From: Cyanobacteria bacterium MH1_Bin12
Lineage (GTDB): Bacteria > Cyanobacteriota > Cyanobacteriia > Cyanobacteriales > Cyanobacteriaceae
DNA length: 44,699 nucleotides
Direction of reading: 5' to 3'
Assembly: GCA_011088145.1 (NCBI GenBank)
Contig: JAALKG010000003.1
Coordinates: 1-44,699 of the forward strand
Shown: piece after piece, positions 1,945 to 44,699 of the stretch
Position numbering within the stretch: position 1 is the stretch's first letter
Layout: each line of letters begins with the position of its first letter
The notes under the pieces: model-generated
What the model was told of the DNA's origin: nothing
What the model saw: only the letters and a program-made list of their open reading frames with translations
Database searches by the model: none
Program-made: the position numbers and the translations under genes

Positions 1945-3339
1945 ATGGCTCGTTTATCGAGACAATTAGCGTTATGGGTTTTTGTCAGCATTATTTTTAT
2001 TGAAATCGTCATTTTGATACCCTCAACTATGCGTCGAGAGAGGGAAAAGCTTCTTGAGTTGAAACAGGCTTGTTATAACATTTGGATAGCAACAATGAAA
2101 TTGAGTCCTCCAGACGCAAGTCCACAAGAATTACTATCCCAGTTTGAAAAAGCTAGACCAAATAATAATATTTTACTTGGAGGAGCAATATTCGATCGCA
2201 ATTTTCAAAATACAATTACTTCTTTCGGTATAAATCCTTCTTTTTCCTTAGATGAAGCAACTCAAGCCTATGATTTTTTCTACATTAAAAACAAAAAACA
2301 ATATAGTATTGCTTGGCAACCATCAGATTTAAAAGGAGATTATTTAGTTATACAGGTAGATGCTTCTTTCATTCAAAAATATCTCAAGCAATATATTATC
2401 AATATTATTCTTTTAATTGCACTTATTTCTGTATTTACCACATTAGGCACTATGTTAGCTTTGAGCTGGATTGTATTATTGCCTATTTTGAAGCTTAGAA
2501 AAGATTTAATGAAAGCAGGTAAGATGACTGCAGAAGGAAAAGAACTTACAAACATCAACTTGAATTCAACTGTTCAATCTAATGAAATAGGAGATGTAAC
2601 TACAGAATTTTTTAATCTGTTACGTATCATTTCCCAATCATTTCAAGCTCAAAAGCAAGCAGAGATGGAAGCCAAAGATGCTCAACAAAATGCCGAAAGC
2701 CAAGCCCAAGATTTAGCCAAAGCCAATCAAGAAATTACTTTTTTAAATAATAAATTACGCCAAGAAAACCTGCGTATGAGTGCTGAATTAGACATTGCTC
2801 GTCAATTACAACAGATGGTTTTACCGAATAAAGAAGAACTAGTTATTAAAGGAATTGATATTGATGCCTATATGAATCCTGCGGATGAAGTGGGAGGAGA
2901 CTATTATGATATATTACAAGCTGATGATGTAGTTACTATTGGGATTGGTGATGTGACAGGACATGGTTTAGAAAGTGGTATTTTAATGTTGATGACTCAA
3001 ACTGCCGTGCGTACTCTTCAAGAAATACGAGAAAAAAATCCAGTAAAATTTTTAGATATTCTTAACCGTACTATCTATCAAAATGTACAACGGATGAACT
3101 CTCAGAGAACACTGACTTTAGCTATTGTGAGTTATTGCAAAGGAAAGGTAAGTATTAGTGGACAACATGAAAACATTTTAGTCGTTCGTTGCGATGGTGA
3201 ACAGGTATTTTTTCTGCCAATAAATAAGCTAAACGAGGTGAGCCTGTGGTTAAGGTTGACAAAAATTGTAAGACAGGACTTTTTAACAAAGTCGTCAAAC
3301 CTTGAGAAGTTGCCATTTGAAAAGTATATTTATCGATAA
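1945..3339 (+). pseudogene. SpoIIE/PP2C-family serine phosphatase with N-terminal membrane sensor region, apparently 3'-truncated
   Basis: Likely ATG at 1945 (MARLSRQ) inside ORF 1909..3339. Has TM segments, a coiled coil (QAQKQAEMEAKDAQQNAESQAQDLAKANQE), then PP2C motifs EVGGDYYD and GDVTGHGLESG. Recognisable similarity stops near 3200 (ILVVRCDGEQ), roughly 90-100 aa short of a full SpoIIE domain. The last ~45 codons overlap the convergent ORF and do not look like protein. Confidence 0.6.
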
Positions 3340-4861
3340 TTTTGGCGGGAGCTACACTTCTGGCTTCCAGATTACGGAAAAAACGAGCTAGTCTTATTTG
3401 TTTAGCAGGTTCGATCGCATCTAAGATTTTCAATGCTAAAATATCATCATACCAAGATTGTCGAGGACTATCCCCATAACTTGCTGTCACAATTGGTAGA
3501 AAATCTTCACAGTATTCTCCTAAAATTTCCTGACGATATTTAACTGCCTCTCGGATAGAGATTTCTTTGGGTGCATCTCCTATAAGCCAATTGTAAGGAG
3601 GTTGCCATTCCCTGACAGGACGAAGACGATCGACTTGAGTGATTACAGTTATGATAGGTATATCGGGTAATTGTTTGAGCATATCCAAATCCATCTGTAA
3701 AGCAGGATCAAGAGCGGGATTTAATAGTAAAATCACATCAACTTCATTACTATAATCAATCACCTGTGCTTGAAATTCAGGGCGATCGACTTGTTCATAT
3801 CCGGGGGTATCATATAAATATAAAGCCTCACCTGTTTTAGTTTCCCATTGATAATTTTTAATATCTGTCGTATTAGGTAAGATATTAACCTCAGCAATTT
3901 GGGCATTAAACAAAGTGTTAATTAAACTGCTTTTGCCTGCACCTGTTCTCCCAGCTAATAAAATCTTAATGGGTTTTTGCTCAATTTTGTCTGGTTTTTC
4001 TGTTTGGGCAAAAATTTCTTGTAACGTTTGAGTTTTTGCACTGGGTAAACTAAAAGTAGTCTGTTCAAATTTATCTTGGGGCAGGTTATCCCCTCCATAG
4101 AGTAACGCTGCCTGTCGTGCTAAATTTCTGAGGGCAACTTCTTTTAATACTTGGTTGAGATTGATTAATAATTCTTGATTAGCCTGTTGATTTAAAGGTT
4201 GACTGGCTAATTTGGCCGCTGCTGTTACAGGATTGATTAACCATTGCGCCCAACCCCAAGCTTTTATAAGTTTACGAGCAGAAGGTTCAAGTTTACGATA
4301 GAGTTGATAACCTTGATAACCTTGTCCAACAGTAATTTGGTTGAACACAGGAGATAATTGTTGCATCCAACGATCGAGATCATCGGTGGTGTTGCGTATT
4401 AAACTATAAGCTTGAGGGATATATATATTTAGTAAAGGATATTCTACTTCTGGATGATAAATTAAAGCGATCGCTTCTACTAAATTTCGGCATTTTTGCC
4501 CAAATCAAAGGATATCTTCCCAAAAAAGAGGTTCATCTTTACTTTCCTTGACAATTGTATTGATAACTTCTTCTAACTTAGTTAATTGATCTGAATTACT
4601 TTGAATGAAGGTAGTAGATGAGGTTTTATTTTCTAGCTCTTTTTGGGCATCAGCAATAATATTTTCGACATTATTAAATAGAGATTGCGTCCATTTAACT
4701 AACAACCATCGCCAAGCAACAAAGATTAGAACAAAAACACCCCATATCCAATTAATACCCCAACGGTGAATTTGTCAACCCGTAGCGATCGCAAAAAAAC
4801 TAATTACACCAAAGACAGGAATACTTAAAATTGCCCACTGCCACCACTTTAAACGAATCAT
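3155..4861 (-). pseudogene. Membrane-anchored P-loop GTPase (MMR_HSR1/Era-like G domain) interrupted by two in-frame TGA codons
   Basis: One reading frame runs from ATG 4859..4861 to 3155 and joins ORFs 4505..4705 and 3155..4366. In-frame TGA at 4775..4777 (IATG*QIHRW) and 4505..4507 (WEDIL*FGQK). Two N-terminal hydrophobic helices. G1 GRTGAGKSSLIN, G3 DTPG, G4-like TQVD. The 3' end abuts or overlaps the truncated SpoIIE gene. Confidence 0.7.
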
Positions 4862-9136: not shown

Positions 9137-11377
9137 TTAATTAATTTTTTTCATATATTTTCCCCATAACAAAGCCGCCTGTGAACTACTACTATTGGTT
9201 GGTTTATTATCATCATTACCCAACCAAACACCTGTCACTAAATTATCTTGAGGCACATAACCAATAAACCATAAATCAACACCTTTATTCGTTGTACCTG
9301 TTTTACCAGCTTCTCCTCTACCTAGATAAGCAGCTTTACCTGTACCAGAGCTGACAACTTGTTGCAACATTCTATTCATATTACTCGCAATATTTTTGTC
9401 TAATACTTGTTTTTGCTCATCTCCAAGTTGATTAAAATGATATACCTGTGTGCAGGTGCGATAATCATCAAAATCTTGACAATCTCTCCCATCTCTAATC
9501 ACATTAATAGCATGGGGGCGAGACCACAATCCTTCGTTAGCAAAGGCTGTATATGCCCCTGTAATTTCCAATACATTTACTTCACTTTGACCTAAAACTA
9601 ATCCGGGTACAGGATTTAAGGGTGATTGAATTCCTAACCGTTGTGCTGTATTGACTACCTTGTCTAAACCTACTTCTTGAGCTACTCTTAATGCGATCGC
9701 ATTTTCAGATAAAGCCAAACCTTGAGCCATACTTACTGCCCCGGATAATCTTTCACAGGCTTTATATTGAATCCCTTGCCAACGCAAACTAGAACAGGAA
9801 TAAGTTTTACTCGGACTCGCTTTATTTTCTAATGCCGCAGTATAAGCAAACACTTTAAAAGTTGATGCGGGTTGTCTTTGAGCTTGAGTCGCTCGGTTAA
9901 ATTGGCTTTGCCCATAGTCTTTACCACCAACTAAAGCAATGATTTCCCCGTTACGACTATCAACAGTTGCGATCGCACCTTGAGAAAAATTATATCGTTT
10001 ACCATTACTATCAATATGAGTTTTCAGACTTTCTTCAGCAAAAGCTTGTATCTTAGGATTTAAACTTGTTTCAATAATGTAATCCCCTTCTTGAATCAAA
10101 TCTTTGCTTAATACTCGACTCATTTCATCAAAGACATAGCTATAAAAGTAAGGAGCAATAATTTGAGATAAAGTTTGTTTAGCTTTAGGACTAATTTTAA
10201 TGGTTGAACGTCTTGCACTAGAAGCCTCCTTGTCGCTAATCATCTTTAACCGTAACATTCTCTGAATAACACGATTACGCAATCCAATAGCGGTTTTATA
10301 ATCATTTACAGGATTAAAACTATTTGGTGCGGGTAACATTGCCACCAAAGTAGCTGACTCCACTAAATCCAAATCTTGAGCTGATTTATCAAAATAAAAT
10401 TGGGCAGCATCTTCAAAGCCATATAAATTAATGCCTAAATAAACTCGATTAAGATAAGTTTTTAAAATATCATTTTTGCTATAAACTGTCTCCAATTTCT
10501 TCGCTACCATCATTTCTCGCCATTTACGAGCTAGATTGTTTTCTCTCCCGACATCTGGATAAATACTTCTGGCGACTTGTTGGGTTATAGTACTCGCACC
10601 CTGTTGAACTCCAGTATCTCTTTTCACTAAGATTGCCCTTAAAATACCAATAGGATCAACTCCAAAATGCCAATAGTAACGGCTGTCTTCTGAAGCGACT
10701 AATGCTTTGGGTAAATAGGGTGAAAATTCTTGTAAGCTATTTAATTCTCGATGAGGTGTATCAATACGAGGAGCGAGTAATGTTTTACCATCATCACTGT
10801 AAACTACAGTTGCACCACCTGTGTGAAAGGGTATGGGATCAACTTTATATTTCAGCCACTGTATGGTAATTAAACCCATAATGGCAATGATCATAATCAT
10901 TATGGCGATTAATCCATACCTAACCAAAAGTAACCATTTTGCTGGAGAATTTTTGAAACTTATTTCTACCGCATCAGCTAAGTCTGGAGGGGCGAGGGTA
11001 ATGACATCGTTGTGACTGAGATTGACTGATTGATAACGTTTTTTGCCTAAATAAATACCGTTGGTTGATTTTAAGTCTTGGATAATAAATTGTTTAGGAT
11101 TATTTTCATCTCTTTCAATGGCACAGTGGCGTGTGCTAACAATTTCACTACGAATAGCTATATCACAATTACTACGACTACGTCCTATAATATATCGATC
11201 GCCGAGTAAAGGGCGAGAAAAAGAGTAATTTTTTCCATCCCTTATATATTTAATGTGAACAGTTGGTACTTTTGCATTAGCCTTGAGAGCGGGGAAATTT
11301 AATTTTACTTGTATTGTTTGCAAAACCCCCGTAAATATTTGACTCACAGGAGAGGAATCAGTCGATTTTTTAGGCAT
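9137..11377 (-). CDS. Bifunctional class A penicillin-binding protein (GT51 transglycosylase plus transpeptidase) with N-terminal FHA domain
   Basis: 746 aa. FHA signature YIIGRS..CDIAI....VSTRHCAIE....FIIQDLKSTNGIYL, then one TM helix. GT51 motifs ASEDSRYYWHFGVD, GASTITQQ and RKWREMMVAKKLE. Transpeptidase motifs STFK, SEN and KTGTT. Confidence 0.85.
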   Translation of the reverse strand: MPKKSTDSSPVSQIFTGVLQTIQVKLNFPALKANAKVPTVHIKYIRDGKNYSFSRPLLGDRYIIGRSRSNCDIAIRSEIVSTRHCAIERDENNPKQFIIQDLKSTNGIYLGKKRYQSVNLSHNDVITLAPPDLADAVEISFKNSPAKWLLLVRYGLIAIMIMIIAIMGLITIQWLKYKVDPIPFHTGGATVVYSDDGKTLLAPRIDTPHRELNSLQEFSPYLPKALVASEDSRYYWHFGVDPIGILRAILVKRDTGVQQGASTITQQVARSIYPDVGRENNLARKWREMMVAKKLETVYSKNDILKTYLNRVYLGINLYGFEDAAQFYFDKSAQDLDLVESATLVAMLPAPNSFNPVNDYKTAIGLRNRVIQRMLRLKMISDKEASSARRSTIKISPKAKQTLSQIIAPYFYSYVFDEMSRVLSKDLIQEGDYIIETSLNPKIQAFAEESLKTHIDSNGKRYNFSQGAIATVDSRNGEIIALVGGKDYGQSQFNRATQAQRQPASTFKVFAYTAALENKASPSKTYSCSSLRWQGIQYKACERLSGAVSMAQGLALSENAIALRVAQEVGLDKVVNTAQRLGIQSPLNPVPGLVLGQSEVNVLEITGAYTAFANEGLWSRPHAINVIRDGRDCQDFDDYRTCTQVYHFNQLGDEQKQVLDKNIASNMNRMLQQVVSSGTGKAAYLGRGEAGKTGTTNKGVDLWFIGYVPQDNLVTGVWLGNDDNKPTNSSSSQAALLWGKYMKKIN

Positions 11378-13420: not shown

Positions 13421-14524
<1,104 letters not shown>

Positions 14525-39354: not shown

Positions 39355-41238
39355 TTATACCTGACTTCTTTCAAGACGATGAAGAATAATATTAGCAAGT
39401 TGTTTGCCTCCAAGAGGTTTTTGGACAAAGTCATCAGCACCGCTGGTTAACAGTTGGGCAATAACATCTCGATCAGTATAAATACTGATATATAAGATTG
39501 GTAATTTGTACCAGTAAGGATGACTACGAAGGACTTTACACAATTCAATTCCGCTCAAGTAAGGCATTTCAATATCTAGTAAGAGTAAATCAGGATTAAC
39601 TGCTTGAAGTACATCCCAAAATTGTCGAGGATCATCTAGTGTTGTGAGTTTAAATCCCCAAGGTTGGAGTTGAGAAGGTAAAAATCTTAATAATTCCACA
39701 TCATCATCAACTACCATAACTTTTTTACCTAAAGTAGAACGTTGAAGGGCTTGTTGGCAAAAATTAATCGCTTGTTCGGGAGTTACTGGCTGTTTGAGGT
39801 AAAAAGTACCACCATGTTGAGCAACTAATAGTCGATCGAAAAAGCGATCGCGATCAGCCATAATCACCACTGGTATTGATGGGCTGAAAGAATTTAGTTC
39901 TGTAATTAAAGACAAATTCTCCTCCACATATATAGAATCGGATGTAGATTCAGCAAAAGATAATCTCAGGAAAACAACATTAGGAAATTCGTAACTTTTT
40001 AAACTTTTAAGCCAATTTTTTGCCCACTGAATAGAAGAAGTGATCTTGGTACGCATTCCTTCATGAATAGCTTTTTGTTTTAACAATCGAGTAAATTGTT
40101 GATCATCATCAATAATTAATAACAAAGGAGAATTTTCTGTTATTTGTCCCGATATTTGATTAAATAAATTGTCTTCAGTAGTTAATTCTATTTGTAGATC
40201 ATTTAAAATATTTTCAAATTGCAATACTTGTTGGGTATCATCTTCAATATTGTGGTGTAACAGTTGTTCTAAATCTTTAGCTAAATTAGAACCTTCGTCA
40301 AAGCCAAAAATACCCACTGTTCCAGCCAATTTATGAGCGATAGATCGAGCTTCTTCTTTTTTATTATGAGTCAATTCGCCTGCTTTTAACGCCTGTAGAG
40401 TTTCTTGTAAAGTGTTCAACTGCTGATTACTTTGGTGTCGATATTTTTCCCAAGCAGTCGCCAAAGCGGCTAGATGTCGAGTTTGCTTTTGAAACATCTC
40501 TGGTAATGTTTGTCTATCTTCGATGGGACAAGATAGAAAATTGTCTGCCAAATTATGATCTTGAGGTAAAGATTTTAGACAATATCCTCTACCCCGTAAA
40601 GTTTCAATGGGATCCTCTGATATACCCACTAACTTTAATTTTTGTCGTAAATATCTCAGATGCGATCGCACTGTTGCCTCTGATGGATATTCTACTGATG
40701 ACCAAAGATTTTCGATAATATCTTCAATACTAAAAACCTCTTGACTATGGCTCATAAACAGTTCTAGCAATTGATATTCTTTACTCGTCAATAAAATTAA
40801 TTCTCCTTTGTAAGTCACTTGACAACTACAAGTATCCAATTGTAAATCACCCCATTGTAATACAGGCACAGGATTAAAATTTGAACGACGTAATAACGCT
40901 CTTATTCTTGCCCCTAATTCTTCTACATTAAATGGTTTACACAGATAATCATCCGCTCCTGCATCTAATCCCATAATTTTTTCTTGATTGCTATGACGAG
41001 CAGTTAATAAGATAATGGGCATCTTATAGCCATAAGAACGAAAACGTTTACATAAACTAATTCCATCGAGTTTAGGTAAAGACCAGTCAAGGATAATTAA
41101 ATCATAATTATAGGTAGAACCATAAGTCCATCCATGTTCTCCATTAAAAACGGCATCGAAGTTATAGTTTTTTTCACCCAGAGTTTTTTGAAGTACATCA
41201 ATTAAAATTTCATCATCATCAACTAGTAATATTCTCAT
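39355..41238 (-). CDS. rcaC: RcaC-like multidomain response regulator: REC - OmpR winged helix - HPt - degenerate REC - REC
   Basis: 627 aa. REC1 with acceptor Asp at residue 51 (LIILDWSLP) and KPF. wHTH (LTSKEYQLLELF...ETLRGRGYCL). HPt (SIAHKLAGTVGIFGF, His about 302). A receiver-like segment lacking the acceptor Asp (VVFLRLSF). C-terminal REC (LLLLDIEMP...KPL). Same layout and similar length as Fremyella diplosiphon RcaC. Confidence 0.7.
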   Translation of the reverse strand: MRILLVDDDEILIDVLQKTLGEKNYNFDAVFNGEHGWTYGSTYNYDLIILDWSLPKLDGISLCKRFRSYGYKMPIILLTARHSNQEKIMGLDAGADDYLCKPFNVEELGARIRALLRRSNFNPVPVLQWGDLQLDTCSCQVTYKGELILLTSKEYQLLELFMSHSQEVFSIEDIIENLWSSVEYPSEATVRSHLRYLRQKLKLVGISEDPIETLRGRGYCLKSLPQDHNLADNFLSCPIEDRQTLPEMFQKQTRHLAALATAWEKYRHQSNQQLNTLQETLQALKAGELTHNKKEEARSIAHKLAGTVGIFGFDEGSNLAKDLEQLLHHNIEDDTQQVLQFENILNDLQIELTTEDNLFNQISGQITENSPLLLIIDDDQQFTRLLKQKAIHEGMRTKITSSIQWAKNWLKSLKSYEFPNVVFLRLSFAESTSDSIYVEENLSLITELNSFSPSIPVVIMADRDRFFDRLLVAQHGGTFYLKQPVTPEQAINFCQQALQRSTLGKKVMVVDDDVELLRFLPSQLQPWGFKLTTLDDPRQFWDVLQAVNPDLLLLDIEMPYLSGIELCKVLRSHPYWYKLPILYISIYTDRDVIAQLLTSGADDFVQKPLGGKQLANIILHRLERSQV

Positions 41239-41449: not shown

Positions 41450-41830
41450 TTACTTATCCCAATTCAACATTTTGCTCACTCTACCGGCTAAAGTCATAGA
41501 GTTAAATGGTTTGGTAATGACACCAGCTACCCCTAAATTTTGAAACTGTTTTTTGTCTGCTGCCTGGGTTTTAGCTGTCAGAAAAATCACTGGAATTAAT
41601 TGAGTTTGAGAATTCGCTTTCAAATTAGATAAAGTTTTTATTCCGTCCATTTCTGGCATCATTACGTCTAAAAGAATGGCATTGGGCTGTTGATTTTCAG
41701 CGATCGCAATTCCTTCTATTCCCGAAGAAGCAATCAAAACTTGCCAACCAACTTCAATTTCAATCCCTATTTGGACAACTTCTCGAATTGCTTCTTCGTC
41801 ATCAATTAGTAAAATACATTTATCACTCAT
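41450..41830 (-). CDS. Single-domain CheY-like response regulator (RcaF-like by position)
   Basis: 126 aa. DDEE, ILLDVMMPEMDG, TAK and KPF receiver motifs. Its start overlaps the kinase stop (ATGAGTGA). Confidence 0.8.
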   Translation of the reverse strand: MSDKCILLIDDEEAIREVVQIGIEIEVGWQVLIASSGIEGIAIAENQQPNAILLDVMMPEMDGIKTLSNLKANSQTQLIPVIFLTAKTQAADKKQFQNLGVAGVITKPFNSMTLAGRVSKMLNWDK

Positions 41831-43925
41831 CGAATGAACCTCCTTTATTAATTAATAAGGGCAGAGTAAAATAAAAAGTACTACCTTTTCCTAAACAACT
41901 TTGAGCCCAAATTTTGCCGCCATGCCCTTCGATAATCTGACGGCAAATTGTTAATCCTAAACCTGTACCTCCTTTTTTACGAGAATCAGAAGAATCAACT
42001 TGTTGAAAACGCTCAAAAATTGTTTCTAGTTGGTTTAGAGGAATACCTTGTCCTTGATCTCTGACTTTAAAGGTGACATAGTTGATCGATGTCTGTCTTT
42101 TTTCTTTTTGTTCGATGGATTCAACACTTGCAGATAGAAAAATCATGCTTTCTGGTGGAGAAAACTTGATCGCATTACTCAACAAATTGGTTAAAGTTTG
42201 AACTATATAGTCATAGTCAGCCCACACCAGAAAATTGACTGTTTGACTAAATAATGTGACTCCTCTTTCATTGGCCATAGTCTGCATCGCCTGACAAGCT
42301 TCAAGCATTAATTCATTTGCCTGACAGGCTTTTTTGTTCATTTTGACTTTGCCTGATTGGATACTTTGTAAATCAAGAACGTTATTAACTAAGCGAACGA
42401 GGCGATCAGTTTGTTCGTCAGCGATGGTAAGCATTCTGTGTCCTTTCGGGGAAAGATTACCCAGTTTTCCTGTGGCTAAAATTTTCAGAGAACTATGAAT
42501 CGAAGTTAAAGGAGTTCGCAATTCGTGACTAACTACAGAAATAAACTCATCTTTCATTCTTTCGATCGCTTTTCGATCACTAATATCACTAGTCAGAGCA
42601 AAAAATCCTTTGATAACCGCTTTTTTTTGTTTATGAATATGGGGTATGTAGGTCACATTAACAGTGTGAATATTCCCATCTTGAAAAGTCATATCTTTTT
42701 CGTAGGTTACTGTTTCTCCTGATAAAACTTTATCAATATACTGTTTCATTTTTTGGTATTCTTCTTTGCCATGAACTTCTTTCAAATGAGAACCGTAAAT
42801 TTTGTGAGGAGAAAATCCGAACCATCTTTGGTAAGCTTGATTATTAAAACGATAAGATTGGTGTTTATCAACATAAGCGATTAAAACTGGTATACCATTA
42901 GCAATCAAACTCAATTTTTCTTCGCTACGACGCAAGGCGGCTTCCGCCTTTTGACGATCGTTAATTTCTTCTTGTAAACTGCGGTTGGCTTCTCTTAATT
43001 TTGCTGTTCGCTGGGCGACTAATTCTTCTAAATTTCCTCTTAACTCGGCTTGAGATAAAGCAATGCCAATTTGAGCGGCTAGTTGTTGCATTAATTCCAA
43101 CTCAAAGTTTTGCCATTGCCTAGTATTTGTACATTGATGAGCAATTAACAAACCCCAAAGTTTGGGCGTTCTTTTTCCTTTGCCTTTTTTGGGATTCAGA
43201 TTTTGTAATATGGGTACGATTAATTTAGCTTTTACATTCCATTCGTGGAGAAATTCGATCAGACAATCAATTAAATTAGCTTGTTGACTTTCTACATCAG
43301 CGATCGCTTTTACTCTTCCTTTTTCATAAAGTTCTCTGTATTCTTCAGGAAAAACTTCTTCAGGAAACTCAACACCTAAAACAGGGCGACAATTAGGTAA
43401 AACAGCTTCGCTAATTGCCATACCAGTACCATTAGCAAAAAGTTGGTAAATCAGCACTCGATCGGCTTTGAGGATTCTTTGTACTTCGGTAACAGCAGTC
43501 TGGAGAATCTCTTCAAGTTGAAGGGCTTGACTAATTTTAAAGGTAACTTCAGAAAATAATTTGACTCTTTGATGTTGACGGTGAAGTTCTTCTTCAGCTA
43601 GTTTAAGTTGAGTTATATCTGTGAGAATTAACAGTTTATAATTCGGTAATAGATCCTTAACCAGTTTATATTTTAAGGTTTTATTTTTACCATCGAGATA
43701 GCGAATTTGAATTCGTTCCTTATTGTTACTATTTAAAGTACCAATTAAAAAATCGAAAATCGATCGTCCTAATAATTCTTCTTTTGTACAACCAAATAAA
43801 TTACAAGCACAACTATTAACTTCTACAAAACAATCATGATCATCGACAATCATAATGGCTTCAAAAGAATTTTCAAATATAGCTTGAAATAATTTTTTTT
43901 CTGGAAATGACTCTAATCCTTCCAT
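41823..43925 (-). CDS. PAS-GAF-PAS sensor histidine kinase with phytochrome/cyanobacteriochrome-like GAF (RcaE-like by architecture and synteny)
   Basis: 700 aa, soluble. N-terminal PAS. GAF with ADRVLIYQL...AISEAV...YEKGRVKAIADV...IDCLIEFLHEWNVKAKLIVPIL...WGLLIAHQC. Second PAS. H-box SVVSHELRTPLTSI. N-box LLSNAIKFSP. G-boxes DQGQGIP and GTGLGLTICRQI. Confidence 0.7.
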   Translation of the reverse strand: MEGLESFPEKKLFQAIFENSFEAIMIVDDHDCFVEVNSCACNLFGCTKEELLGRSIFDFLIGTLNSNNKERIQIRYLDGKNKTLKYKLVKDLLPNYKLLILTDITQLKLAEEELHRQHQRVKLFSEVTFKISQALQLEEILQTAVTEVQRILKADRVLIYQLFANGTGMAISEAVLPNCRPVLGVEFPEEVFPEEYRELYEKGRVKAIADVESQQANLIDCLIEFLHEWNVKAKLIVPILQNLNPKKGKGKRTPKLWGLLIAHQCTNTRQWQNFELELMQQLAAQIGIALSQAELRGNLEELVAQRTAKLREANRSLQEEINDRQKAEAALRRSEEKLSLIANGIPVLIAYVDKHQSYRFNNQAYQRWFGFSPHKIYGSHLKEVHGKEEYQKMKQYIDKVLSGETVTYEKDMTFQDGNIHTVNVTYIPHIHKQKKAVIKGFFALTSDISDRKAIERMKDEFISVVSHELRTPLTSIHSSLKILATGKLGNLSPKGHRMLTIADEQTDRLVRLVNNVLDLQSIQSGKVKMNKKACQANELMLEACQAMQTMANERGVTLFSQTVNFLVWADYDYIVQTLTNLLSNAIKFSPPESMIFLSASVESIEQKEKRQTSINYVTFKVRDQGQGIPLNQLETIFERFQQVDSSDSRKKGGTGLGLTICRQIIEGHGGKIWAQSCLGKGSTFYFTLPLLINKGGSFDE

Positions 43926-44043
43926 AATTCTTAAAAAAGATTAACAAAGCTTAAATCATTGTAACTCAAGGATACTTTTCTTAAAAGGATTTAAGAAATT
44001 GGGCAATCATCTTTACATAACTGAAATATTATCCATAATACTT

Positions 44044-44148
44044 GGTGTGCAACTTAAAACGAAAGAATTAGGTTTTCAGAAAAAAATTTAAATTTATTGA
44101 TTTTTAAAAGCTTTTAAAATCAATGGTCACAATTCAGTTGCACATAGG
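44044..44148. mobile_element. MITE-like ~105-bp dispersed repeat, copy B
   Basis: Second copy of the element at 1741..1844, with the same TGTGCAACT inverted termini. Lies between the kinase start (43925) and the pcyA stop (44180). Confidence 0.6.
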
Positions 44149-44179
44149 GTATGGTTACTAATTTTATAAGGTTGGTTTA

Positions 44180-44699
44180 TTAATGAACATAGGGAAAATC
44201 AAATAACATTTTACTCATATATCGATCAGTCCAGACTTCACCTAAAGACTTTTCTAGAACCCTTCTGGTTTTATCATTCTGTTGCTGTTTATTGCAGTAA
44301 TAATGCTGTGCTGACAAAATTTCGTCTTCTTCAATCTCAGATATTACCGCAGGTGTAGAAGTGGCAATTTGACAGTGTAGATTTAAAATATCATTAACGC
44401 GATCGAGAAAAAGTTCTTCTTCTTGATAATCAGCTAAACGGGCAAATAAACAAAATTGAGAAAAAATATCTCCCCACTTTGGTAAATCACGAGGATGAGC
44501 AAAATTAATGCTAGATAAATTGCTTAAAGCTTGTTGATAAATTGAAGGTAAAATTCGTTGCCGATTCATAGGTGAAAGATCCACTATTGCCGCCCCAATT
44601 CCGTCTTGGCTCCCGACTAAATCGACTCCAAATATCGGTCAAGGATAATTAGGGTCTGCTGAAAAAGTATCAACTTTCATCTGGTACTACAACTGTGAA
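44180..44699 (-). pseudogene. pcyA: Phycocyanobilin:ferredoxin oxidoreductase, 5' end outside the window, with in-frame stop codon(s)
   Basis: The C-terminal half matches my memory of Synechocystis PcyA (LPKWGDIFSQFCLF, HYYCNKQQQNDKTRRVLEKSLGEVWTDRYMSKMLFD). The same frame continues upstream of ORF 44180..44584 as ADPNYP*PIFGVDLVGSQDGIGAAIVDLSP, with TGA at 44639..44641. A further in-frame TAG lies at 44687..44689, near the window edge. Confidence 0.75.

Follow-up and report, generated by a model that had tools for sequence, protein, structure and literature searches.

The stretch of DNA analysed here (44,699 nucleotides, hereafter the window) is contig C91 of the MAG Cyanobacteria bacterium MH1_Bin12 (G000), which comprises 190 contigs and 2.57 Mb at 34% GC and is 67.5% complete. 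At the end of the window, the minus-strand frame 44180-44698 translates as SQL-stop-YQMKVDTFSADPNYP-stop-PIFGVDLVGSQDGIGAAIVDLSP...DKTRRVLEKSLGEVWTDRYMSKMLFDFPYVH-stop, in which the second stop is followed by PIFGVDLVG...FPYVH. The genes and features of this region are as follows.

39355-41238: REC-wHTH-HPt-REC regulator, after the single receiver (from Pfam domains)
41450-41830: single receiver, after the RcaE-like kinase (from Pfam domains)
41823-43925, minus strand: RcaE-like kinase with PAS-GAF-PAS-HisKA-HATPase domains (from Pfam), directly downstream of pcyA2
44180-44649, minus strand: 3' fragment of a pcyA gene, here pcyA2 (from its translation, NF002760, alignment to PDB 2d1e/2g18 and identity to the G001 orthologue)
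44639-44641, minus strand: TGA, a nonsense mutation in the codon equivalent to Leu99 (from the G001 alignment, a column of 118 sequences and a second assembly)
44644-44649, minus strand: right copy (TAATTA) of a 6-bp target-site duplication (a direct repeat; the left copy, TCATTA, lies at the C37 junction)
44650-44699, minus strand: right end of an IS5-family element, with terminal inverted repeat ...TTCAGCAGACCC and containing TAG at 44687-44689 (from sequence shared with C147 and the JAAHTH010023494.1 extension)

The pcyA2 3' fragment consists of (N/H)Y-P-stop-PIFGVD...FPYVH, ends in a TAA stop at 44180-44182 and corresponds approximately to residues 96-246 of Synechocystis PcyA. It matches NF002760 with 191 bits over profile positions 96-242 and shares 75% amino-acid identity with an intact 252-aa orthologue in the sister species G001 (MAG MFD03250.bin.2.83), and PebA/PebB models give less than 36 bits on the pcyA2 pieces. 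Because the PDB PcyA chains align with the window fragment from residue 100 (2D1E), the TGA falls on the position of Leu99 (Synechocystis numbering). In the G001 orthologue the sequence is cct aac tat cct TTA cct where the window has cct aat tat cct TGA ccg, and the Leu99 column holds 111 Leu and 7 Ile among 118 PcyA sequences. An identical TGA is present in a separately deposited metagenome contig, JAAHTH010023494.1 (GCA_011087705.1), which matches the window over 1797 nt at 100% identity. Recoding of the TGA was considered and rejected because the insertion sequence (IS) splits pcyA2 regardless. Equally, the residues PNY before the TGA were not accepted as authentic upstream pcyA; they are the duplicated target (AAT TA) placed after the CC of the IS end.

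The right end of the IS continues beyond the window. The contig JAAHTH010023494.1 runs 574 nt past the window end, and the added sequence codes for the last 163 aa of a DDE transposase. The fragment scores 88.8 bits against PF13586 (cut-off 29.2) and 115 bits against NF033578 ("IS5 family transposase"; profile 275-418 of 419), the latter being a fragment score below the 275-bit whole-protein cut-off, and is 58-60% identical to annotated cyanobacterial IS5 and ISMae6-like transposases (tblastn). Both hallmarks of the IS5 family are present, a DDE transposase of the IS5 type and terminal inverted repeats with a target-site duplication.

Several points of the initial annotation can be settled on this basis. 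Extending the contig, which it had recommended, leads into the transposase, as described above, and its central observation, that the TGA replaces a conserved Leu through one change, is borne out by the TTA in G001 and the Leu in 111 of 118 sequences. The continuous PcyA-like frame that it described holds from PIFGVD onward, but the 50 nucleotides at 44650-44699 are IS. Because the extension past the window encodes a transposase, the TAG and the peptide KVDTFSA are IS sequence rather than pcyA; the second in-frame stop is thus real but belongs to the element, and KVDTFSA is no counterpart of the catalytic His region, which lies on contig C37 and reads LDILQCVMFP. It had also offered a choice between alignment breakdown at the window edge and degeneration of the N-terminal half: the gene is indeed degenerating, but the edge effect is the IS insertion and not a set of further point lesions.

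The last 55 bases of the window (44645-44699) recur with 100% identity as the opening 55 bases of contig C147; past them the sequences diverge, a pattern of C91 and C147 ends that we read from the sequences as an assembly-graph junction at a repeat. Contig C91 breaks at the window edge because the IS element is repeated. The length of the element is approximately 1638 nt, a composite value obtained by overlaying the window-side copy with the second-locus copy (92% identity over 167 nt). Because this is shorter than the smallest contig of the MAG (3012 nt), the IS interior is missing from the MAG, and no single contig spans it. Searches of G000 and G001 with the IS end (3 mismatches allowed) and with the transposase fragment found no further IS copies. 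Compared with IS5-family elements of cyanobacteria (e.g., the ISMae6-like elements of Microcystis aeruginosa), the element is alike in transposase family, in the GGG at the start of its inverted repeats and in duplicating a short target that contains TA, but here it is seen only as ends and as a composite of two copies about 92% identical, and its 6-bp TA-NN-TA duplication is deduced from the genome's own copies rather than from a curated IS record.

The second IS copy (92% identical in the overlap) is represented by C147:1-60 together with JAAHTG010012852.1 (L158) and JAAHTH010020347.1 (L157). On C147 it lies just upstream of a gene for a hybrid REC-GAF-HisKA kinase. The sequence that probably flanks it on the left is intergenic and AT-rich and contains a matching TAATTA repeat. 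In the L157 copy, the transposase is interrupted by in-frame stops.

The 5' part of pcyA2 was identified at the very start of contig C37, where a fragment reads MIATTQ...KLHLELARIGDRLDILQCVMFPRAH-stop and then directly ATTAGGGGTAGCTGAATAAATCC..., with the contig end 55 nt on; the gene piece itself terminates ...LDILQCVMFPRAH-stop and passes into ATTAGGGGTAGCTGAATAAAT... This piece matches NF002760 with 107 bits at profile positions 5-91. Each piece alone falls below the 206-bit whole-protein cut-off of this model, but combined they reach 298 bits and span profile positions 5-242 of the PcyA equivalog (NF002760/PF05996 Fe_bilin_red), compared with 328 bits for the intact G001 orthologue. Along PDB 2g18, the C37 piece extends up to residue 100 and the window piece begins at residue 105. 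The gene-IS junction of C37 is also present in a Logan contig of SRR10987118 and in JAAHTG010001640.1. Exact-product look-ups matched contigs for the 129-aa and 93-aa products and returned no match for the 134-aa GTG-start product and the 700-aa kinase.

The left junction, on C37, reads ...ccc cgt gc/TCATTA/GGGGTAGCTGAA..., and the right junction, in the window, ...TTCAGCAGACCC/TAATTA/t cct tga ccg.... The IS ends TAGGGGTAGCTGAATAAAT and TAGGGTCTGCTGAAAAAGT are imperfect inverted repeats that match at 14 of 19 positions, adjoining TA included, and the direct repeats TCATTA and TAATTA agree at five of six positions. Related MITE copies share the CAGCAGACCC terminus (44 matches in the genome), and at the five loci where both MITE ends are visible (C37, C46, C61, C126, and C163), perfect 6-bp direct repeats of the form TA-NN-TA lie on either side of them, for which reason we interpret TCATTA/TAATTA as a target-site duplication. 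The same 6-bp repeats led us to reject two alternatives, an IS630/Tc1-like element that duplicates TA and has lost 4 nt at the junction, and a target duplication of 2-4 bp; all three duplication models yield an identical rejoined reading frame. Excising the element and one repeat copy restores gct (c/a)at tat cct TGA ccg ata ttt gga and with it the in-frame ...CVMFPRA(H/N)YP-stop-PIFGVD.... The gap between the pieces is exactly four residues, H/N-Y-P-stop (NF002760 profile 92-95; 2G18 residues 101-104), which matches the spacing of the family. That both halves of pcyA2 flank one and the same IS copy is suggested by the 5/6 direct repeat and by the synteny in relatives.

The MITE family is approximately 190 nt long, carries the IS5-element termini (GGGCTTGGGCG...CAGCAGACCC) and 6-bp TA-NN-TA duplications, and has at least 20 copies in G000 (e.g., C46:~10850-11057, C61, C126, C163, and C37:~14290-14485). 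Several other short repeat families in G000 share only the CAGCAGACCCTA end. A further MITE-like repeat of approximately 110 nt, at 44037-44152 of the window (also 1741-1849), occupies the greater part of the interval that separates the pcyA2 stop from the start of the rcaE-like gene; at least 12 copies with 69-81% identity are distributed over C15, C119, C188, C13, C65, C88, C101, C163, and C106.

A third lesion lies 30 nt inside the C37 piece, where the codon for His88 has become Gln (caa; cat in G001). His88 is present in all 118 other PcyA sequences and is, along with Glu76 and Asp105 (Synechocystis numbering), one of the catalytic residues stated to be essential (PMC9800206). Glu76 and Asp105 are both present in pcyA2, and the equivalents of His74 and Ile86 are likewise retained. 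In place of an uninterrupted frame of approximately 245-255 codons, the gene is broken by the IS after codon 93 and by the TGA, which is codon 96 of the rejoined gene. Insertion site and TGA are only two codons apart, which is taken as coincidence. Otherwise the gene is nearly pristine: only three of 81 columns conserved at 97% or more deviate, one of them in common with G001; the pieces contain no frameshifts; dN/dS against G001 is 0.23 (0.11 for pcyA1); and the terminal branch in the maximum-likelihood tree is 0.17, compared with 0.21 for the G001 counterpart. These features indicate that the inactivation is recent. Compared with known PcyA (Synechocystis Slr0116, PDB 2D1E; Nostoc PcyA, PDB 2G18; NF002760), pcyA2 belongs to the same family and has the same fold at the sequence level, but differs in that an IS interrupts it, a stop replaces Leu99 and Gln replaces His88; it also belongs to a separate cpcD-linked paralogue lineage outside the canonical clade.

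A search of the whole MAG with PF05996 gave matches at five places.

C29: two tandem intact genes, of the pebA and pebB types according to the tree
C63: intact 245-aa PcyA
Window: the pcyA2 3' fragment, profile 69-228, with one TGA
Start of C37: fragment, profile 2-72

The PcyA of C63 scores 358 bits against NF002760 (cut-off 206 bits) and has all catalytic residues. In a maximum-likelihood tree of 119 PcyA and 10 PebA/PebB sequences, it groups with its G001 counterpart among the canonical pcyA genes of the same family (100/100). The window copy pairs with the second copy of G001 (100/99) in an assemblage that is separate and basal; among its other members are the second copies found in further two-copy genomes, as well as the single pcyA of G076 and that of G045. 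All 96 other PcyA sequences, canonical copies included, form one clade (support 87/80). Because its GC content (34.7%) and its nucleotide identity to G001 (78-82%, like the rest of the genome; 78% for pcyA2) match the genome, we regard the C63 gene as resident rather than as a contaminant. The sister species G001 has the same four-gene set, with both pcyA genes intact and 18 kb apart, and its pcyA2 orthologue carries TTA and His (CAT) at the two lesion positions. In G001, one of the tandem pebA/pebB-type genes (C4:414779-415449; L152/L153) is split, with two in-frame TGA at the join, which could be a frameshift error of the long-read assembly or a real lesion.

The initial annotation had named a second intact pcyA as the finding that would make the window gene a redundant decaying paralogue, and the canonical copy on C63 is such a gene. 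It had also pointed to a tension between the loss of an indispensable pcyA and an intact nblA; this tension disappears because synthesis of phycocyanobilin (PCB) is not lost, the C63 pcyA being intact.

On C37, pcyA2 directly follows cpcB-cpcA-cpcC-cpcC-cpcD. In the window it is followed by a PAS-GAF-PAS kinase, a single REC and a REC-wHTH-HPt-REC protein, the architecture of the RcaE-RcaF-RcaC relay, and such a relay is predicted from these domains. An orthologous kinase follows the pcyA2 orthologue in G001, in G028 and in approximately 15 of the 24 loci of the pcyA2 lineage, and a cpcD-like gene lies immediately upstream in all 24 (including L029-L047 and L059-L061). At six other pcyA loci that branch early, those of a Phormidesmis group and of a second copy in Chamaesiphon, a cpcD-like gene and in most cases an rcaE-like gene too occur several kilobases away; the pcyA loci outside the pcyA2 lineage and these six have neither nearby. 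The pcyA2-lineage gene is the only pcyA in G076 and G045, and a second copy in the source genus, in Xenococcaceae/Pleurocapsaceae-like genomes, in G028 and in G210/G240. Homologues of the cpcD-linked type also occur in records of Stanieria and Xenococcus. A description of a named second pcyA paralogue ("pcyA2") was not found in the literature searched. On C37, cpcB and cpcA (2645-3758), both linker genes and cpcD are intact, so that the loss is confined to pcyA2, which ends the cluster.

In Fremyella diplosiphon, the RcaE-RcaF-RcaC relay acts through the L-box and pcyA is induced by red light; in type 3 chromatic acclimation, RcaC switches on the genes for phycocyanin and PCB synthase (PMC5737509). 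From this role of RcaC, we infer that pcyA2 would supply extra PCB alongside phycocyanin and, more generally, that a copy of this type may normally do so with phycocyanin expression under a light-colour relay. The association of pcyA with phycocyanin genes and an RcaE/F/C-type relay is the same as in F. diplosiphon; here, however, it is physical (cpcBACCD, pcyA2, rcaE-like, rcaF-like, and rcaC-like genes) and concerns a second copy that stands beside a canonical one and is dead in this organism. A bolder proposal, which we hold only tentatively and consider somewhat less probable than its opposite, is that the cpcD-linked lineage represents a functionally distinct, light-colour-regulated PCB synthase for inducible phycocyanin, carried across families in a mobile cpcBACCD-pcyA-rcaEFC module. 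If so, its recent loss from an otherwise intact module would mark relaxed selection on chromatic acclimation of the pigment supply. The consistent cpcD-pcyA-rcaE linkage of one lineage is only a mildly new point, and offers a testable link between pigment synthesis and a chromatic acclimation cluster.

Taken together, the window very probably contains the 3' two-thirds of a second pcyA paralogue that is a young pseudogene with three lesions, while PCB supply is kept by the pcyA on C63. An IS5-family element of about 1.6 kb has split the gene between codons 93 and 94, duplicating 6 bp of target sequence; the TTA equivalent to Leu99 has changed to TGA two codons past the insertion point, and the essential His88 to Gln. 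The 5' third is found on C37 because the repeated IS breaks the assembly exactly there. Phycocyanobilin supply is not lost, since C63 carries an intact canonical pcyA of vertical descent and pebA and pebB are intact too; the pcyA2 copy thus appears to be dispensable.

Three other explanations were weighed. A reader of the window alone, where one pcyA is visible, might suppose this gene to be the organism's only one and phycocyanobilin synthesis to be lost or dependent on read-through, the more so since a search of 300 genomes from the order found just one pcyA in most of them. This is scarcely credible given the intact canonical pcyA on C63, which has every catalytic residue, is placed with the pcyA of its family and relates to G001 at the genome-wide level of identity, G001 itself having the same two-copy set. 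It is also very improbable that the TGA, the junction or both are assembly or consensus artefacts in an intact gene. The site does lie at a contig end beside a repeat, where misassemblies are common, but both junctions show the target-site duplication and the inverted repeats expected of a genuine IS5 element, the C37 piece has an independent third lesion (His88Gln), and assemblies built separately contain the same junctions and the TGA, although these assemblies probably come from the same study and perhaps partly from the same reads.

Somewhat more plausible, yet still unlikely, is a polymorphism in which only some members of the population carry the IS, the TGA or both, alongside others with an intact pcyA2 allele. 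A MAG stems from a population, and assemblers drop low-coverage branches; against this, C91, C37, JAAHTH010023494.1 and the Logan contig all pass the gene-IS junctions without a branch. Moreover, among 5.8 billion proteins, only the truncated 129-aa product is more than 77% identical to the pcyA2 product, whose closest full-length relatives show 77%, 74% (G001) and 74% identity.

Under the preferred reading of a young pseudogene, the pigment gene that appeared to be essential and broken is in fact a redundant paralogue, put out of action by an IS insertion, and for this reason there is no physiological paradox; the locus is an ordinary, recently formed pseudogene. In the annotation of this MAG, it should be called a pseudogene split over two contigs, with the C63 gene as the functional pcyA. 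The case also illustrates how an alignment that fails at a contig end may have reached the boundary of a repeat.
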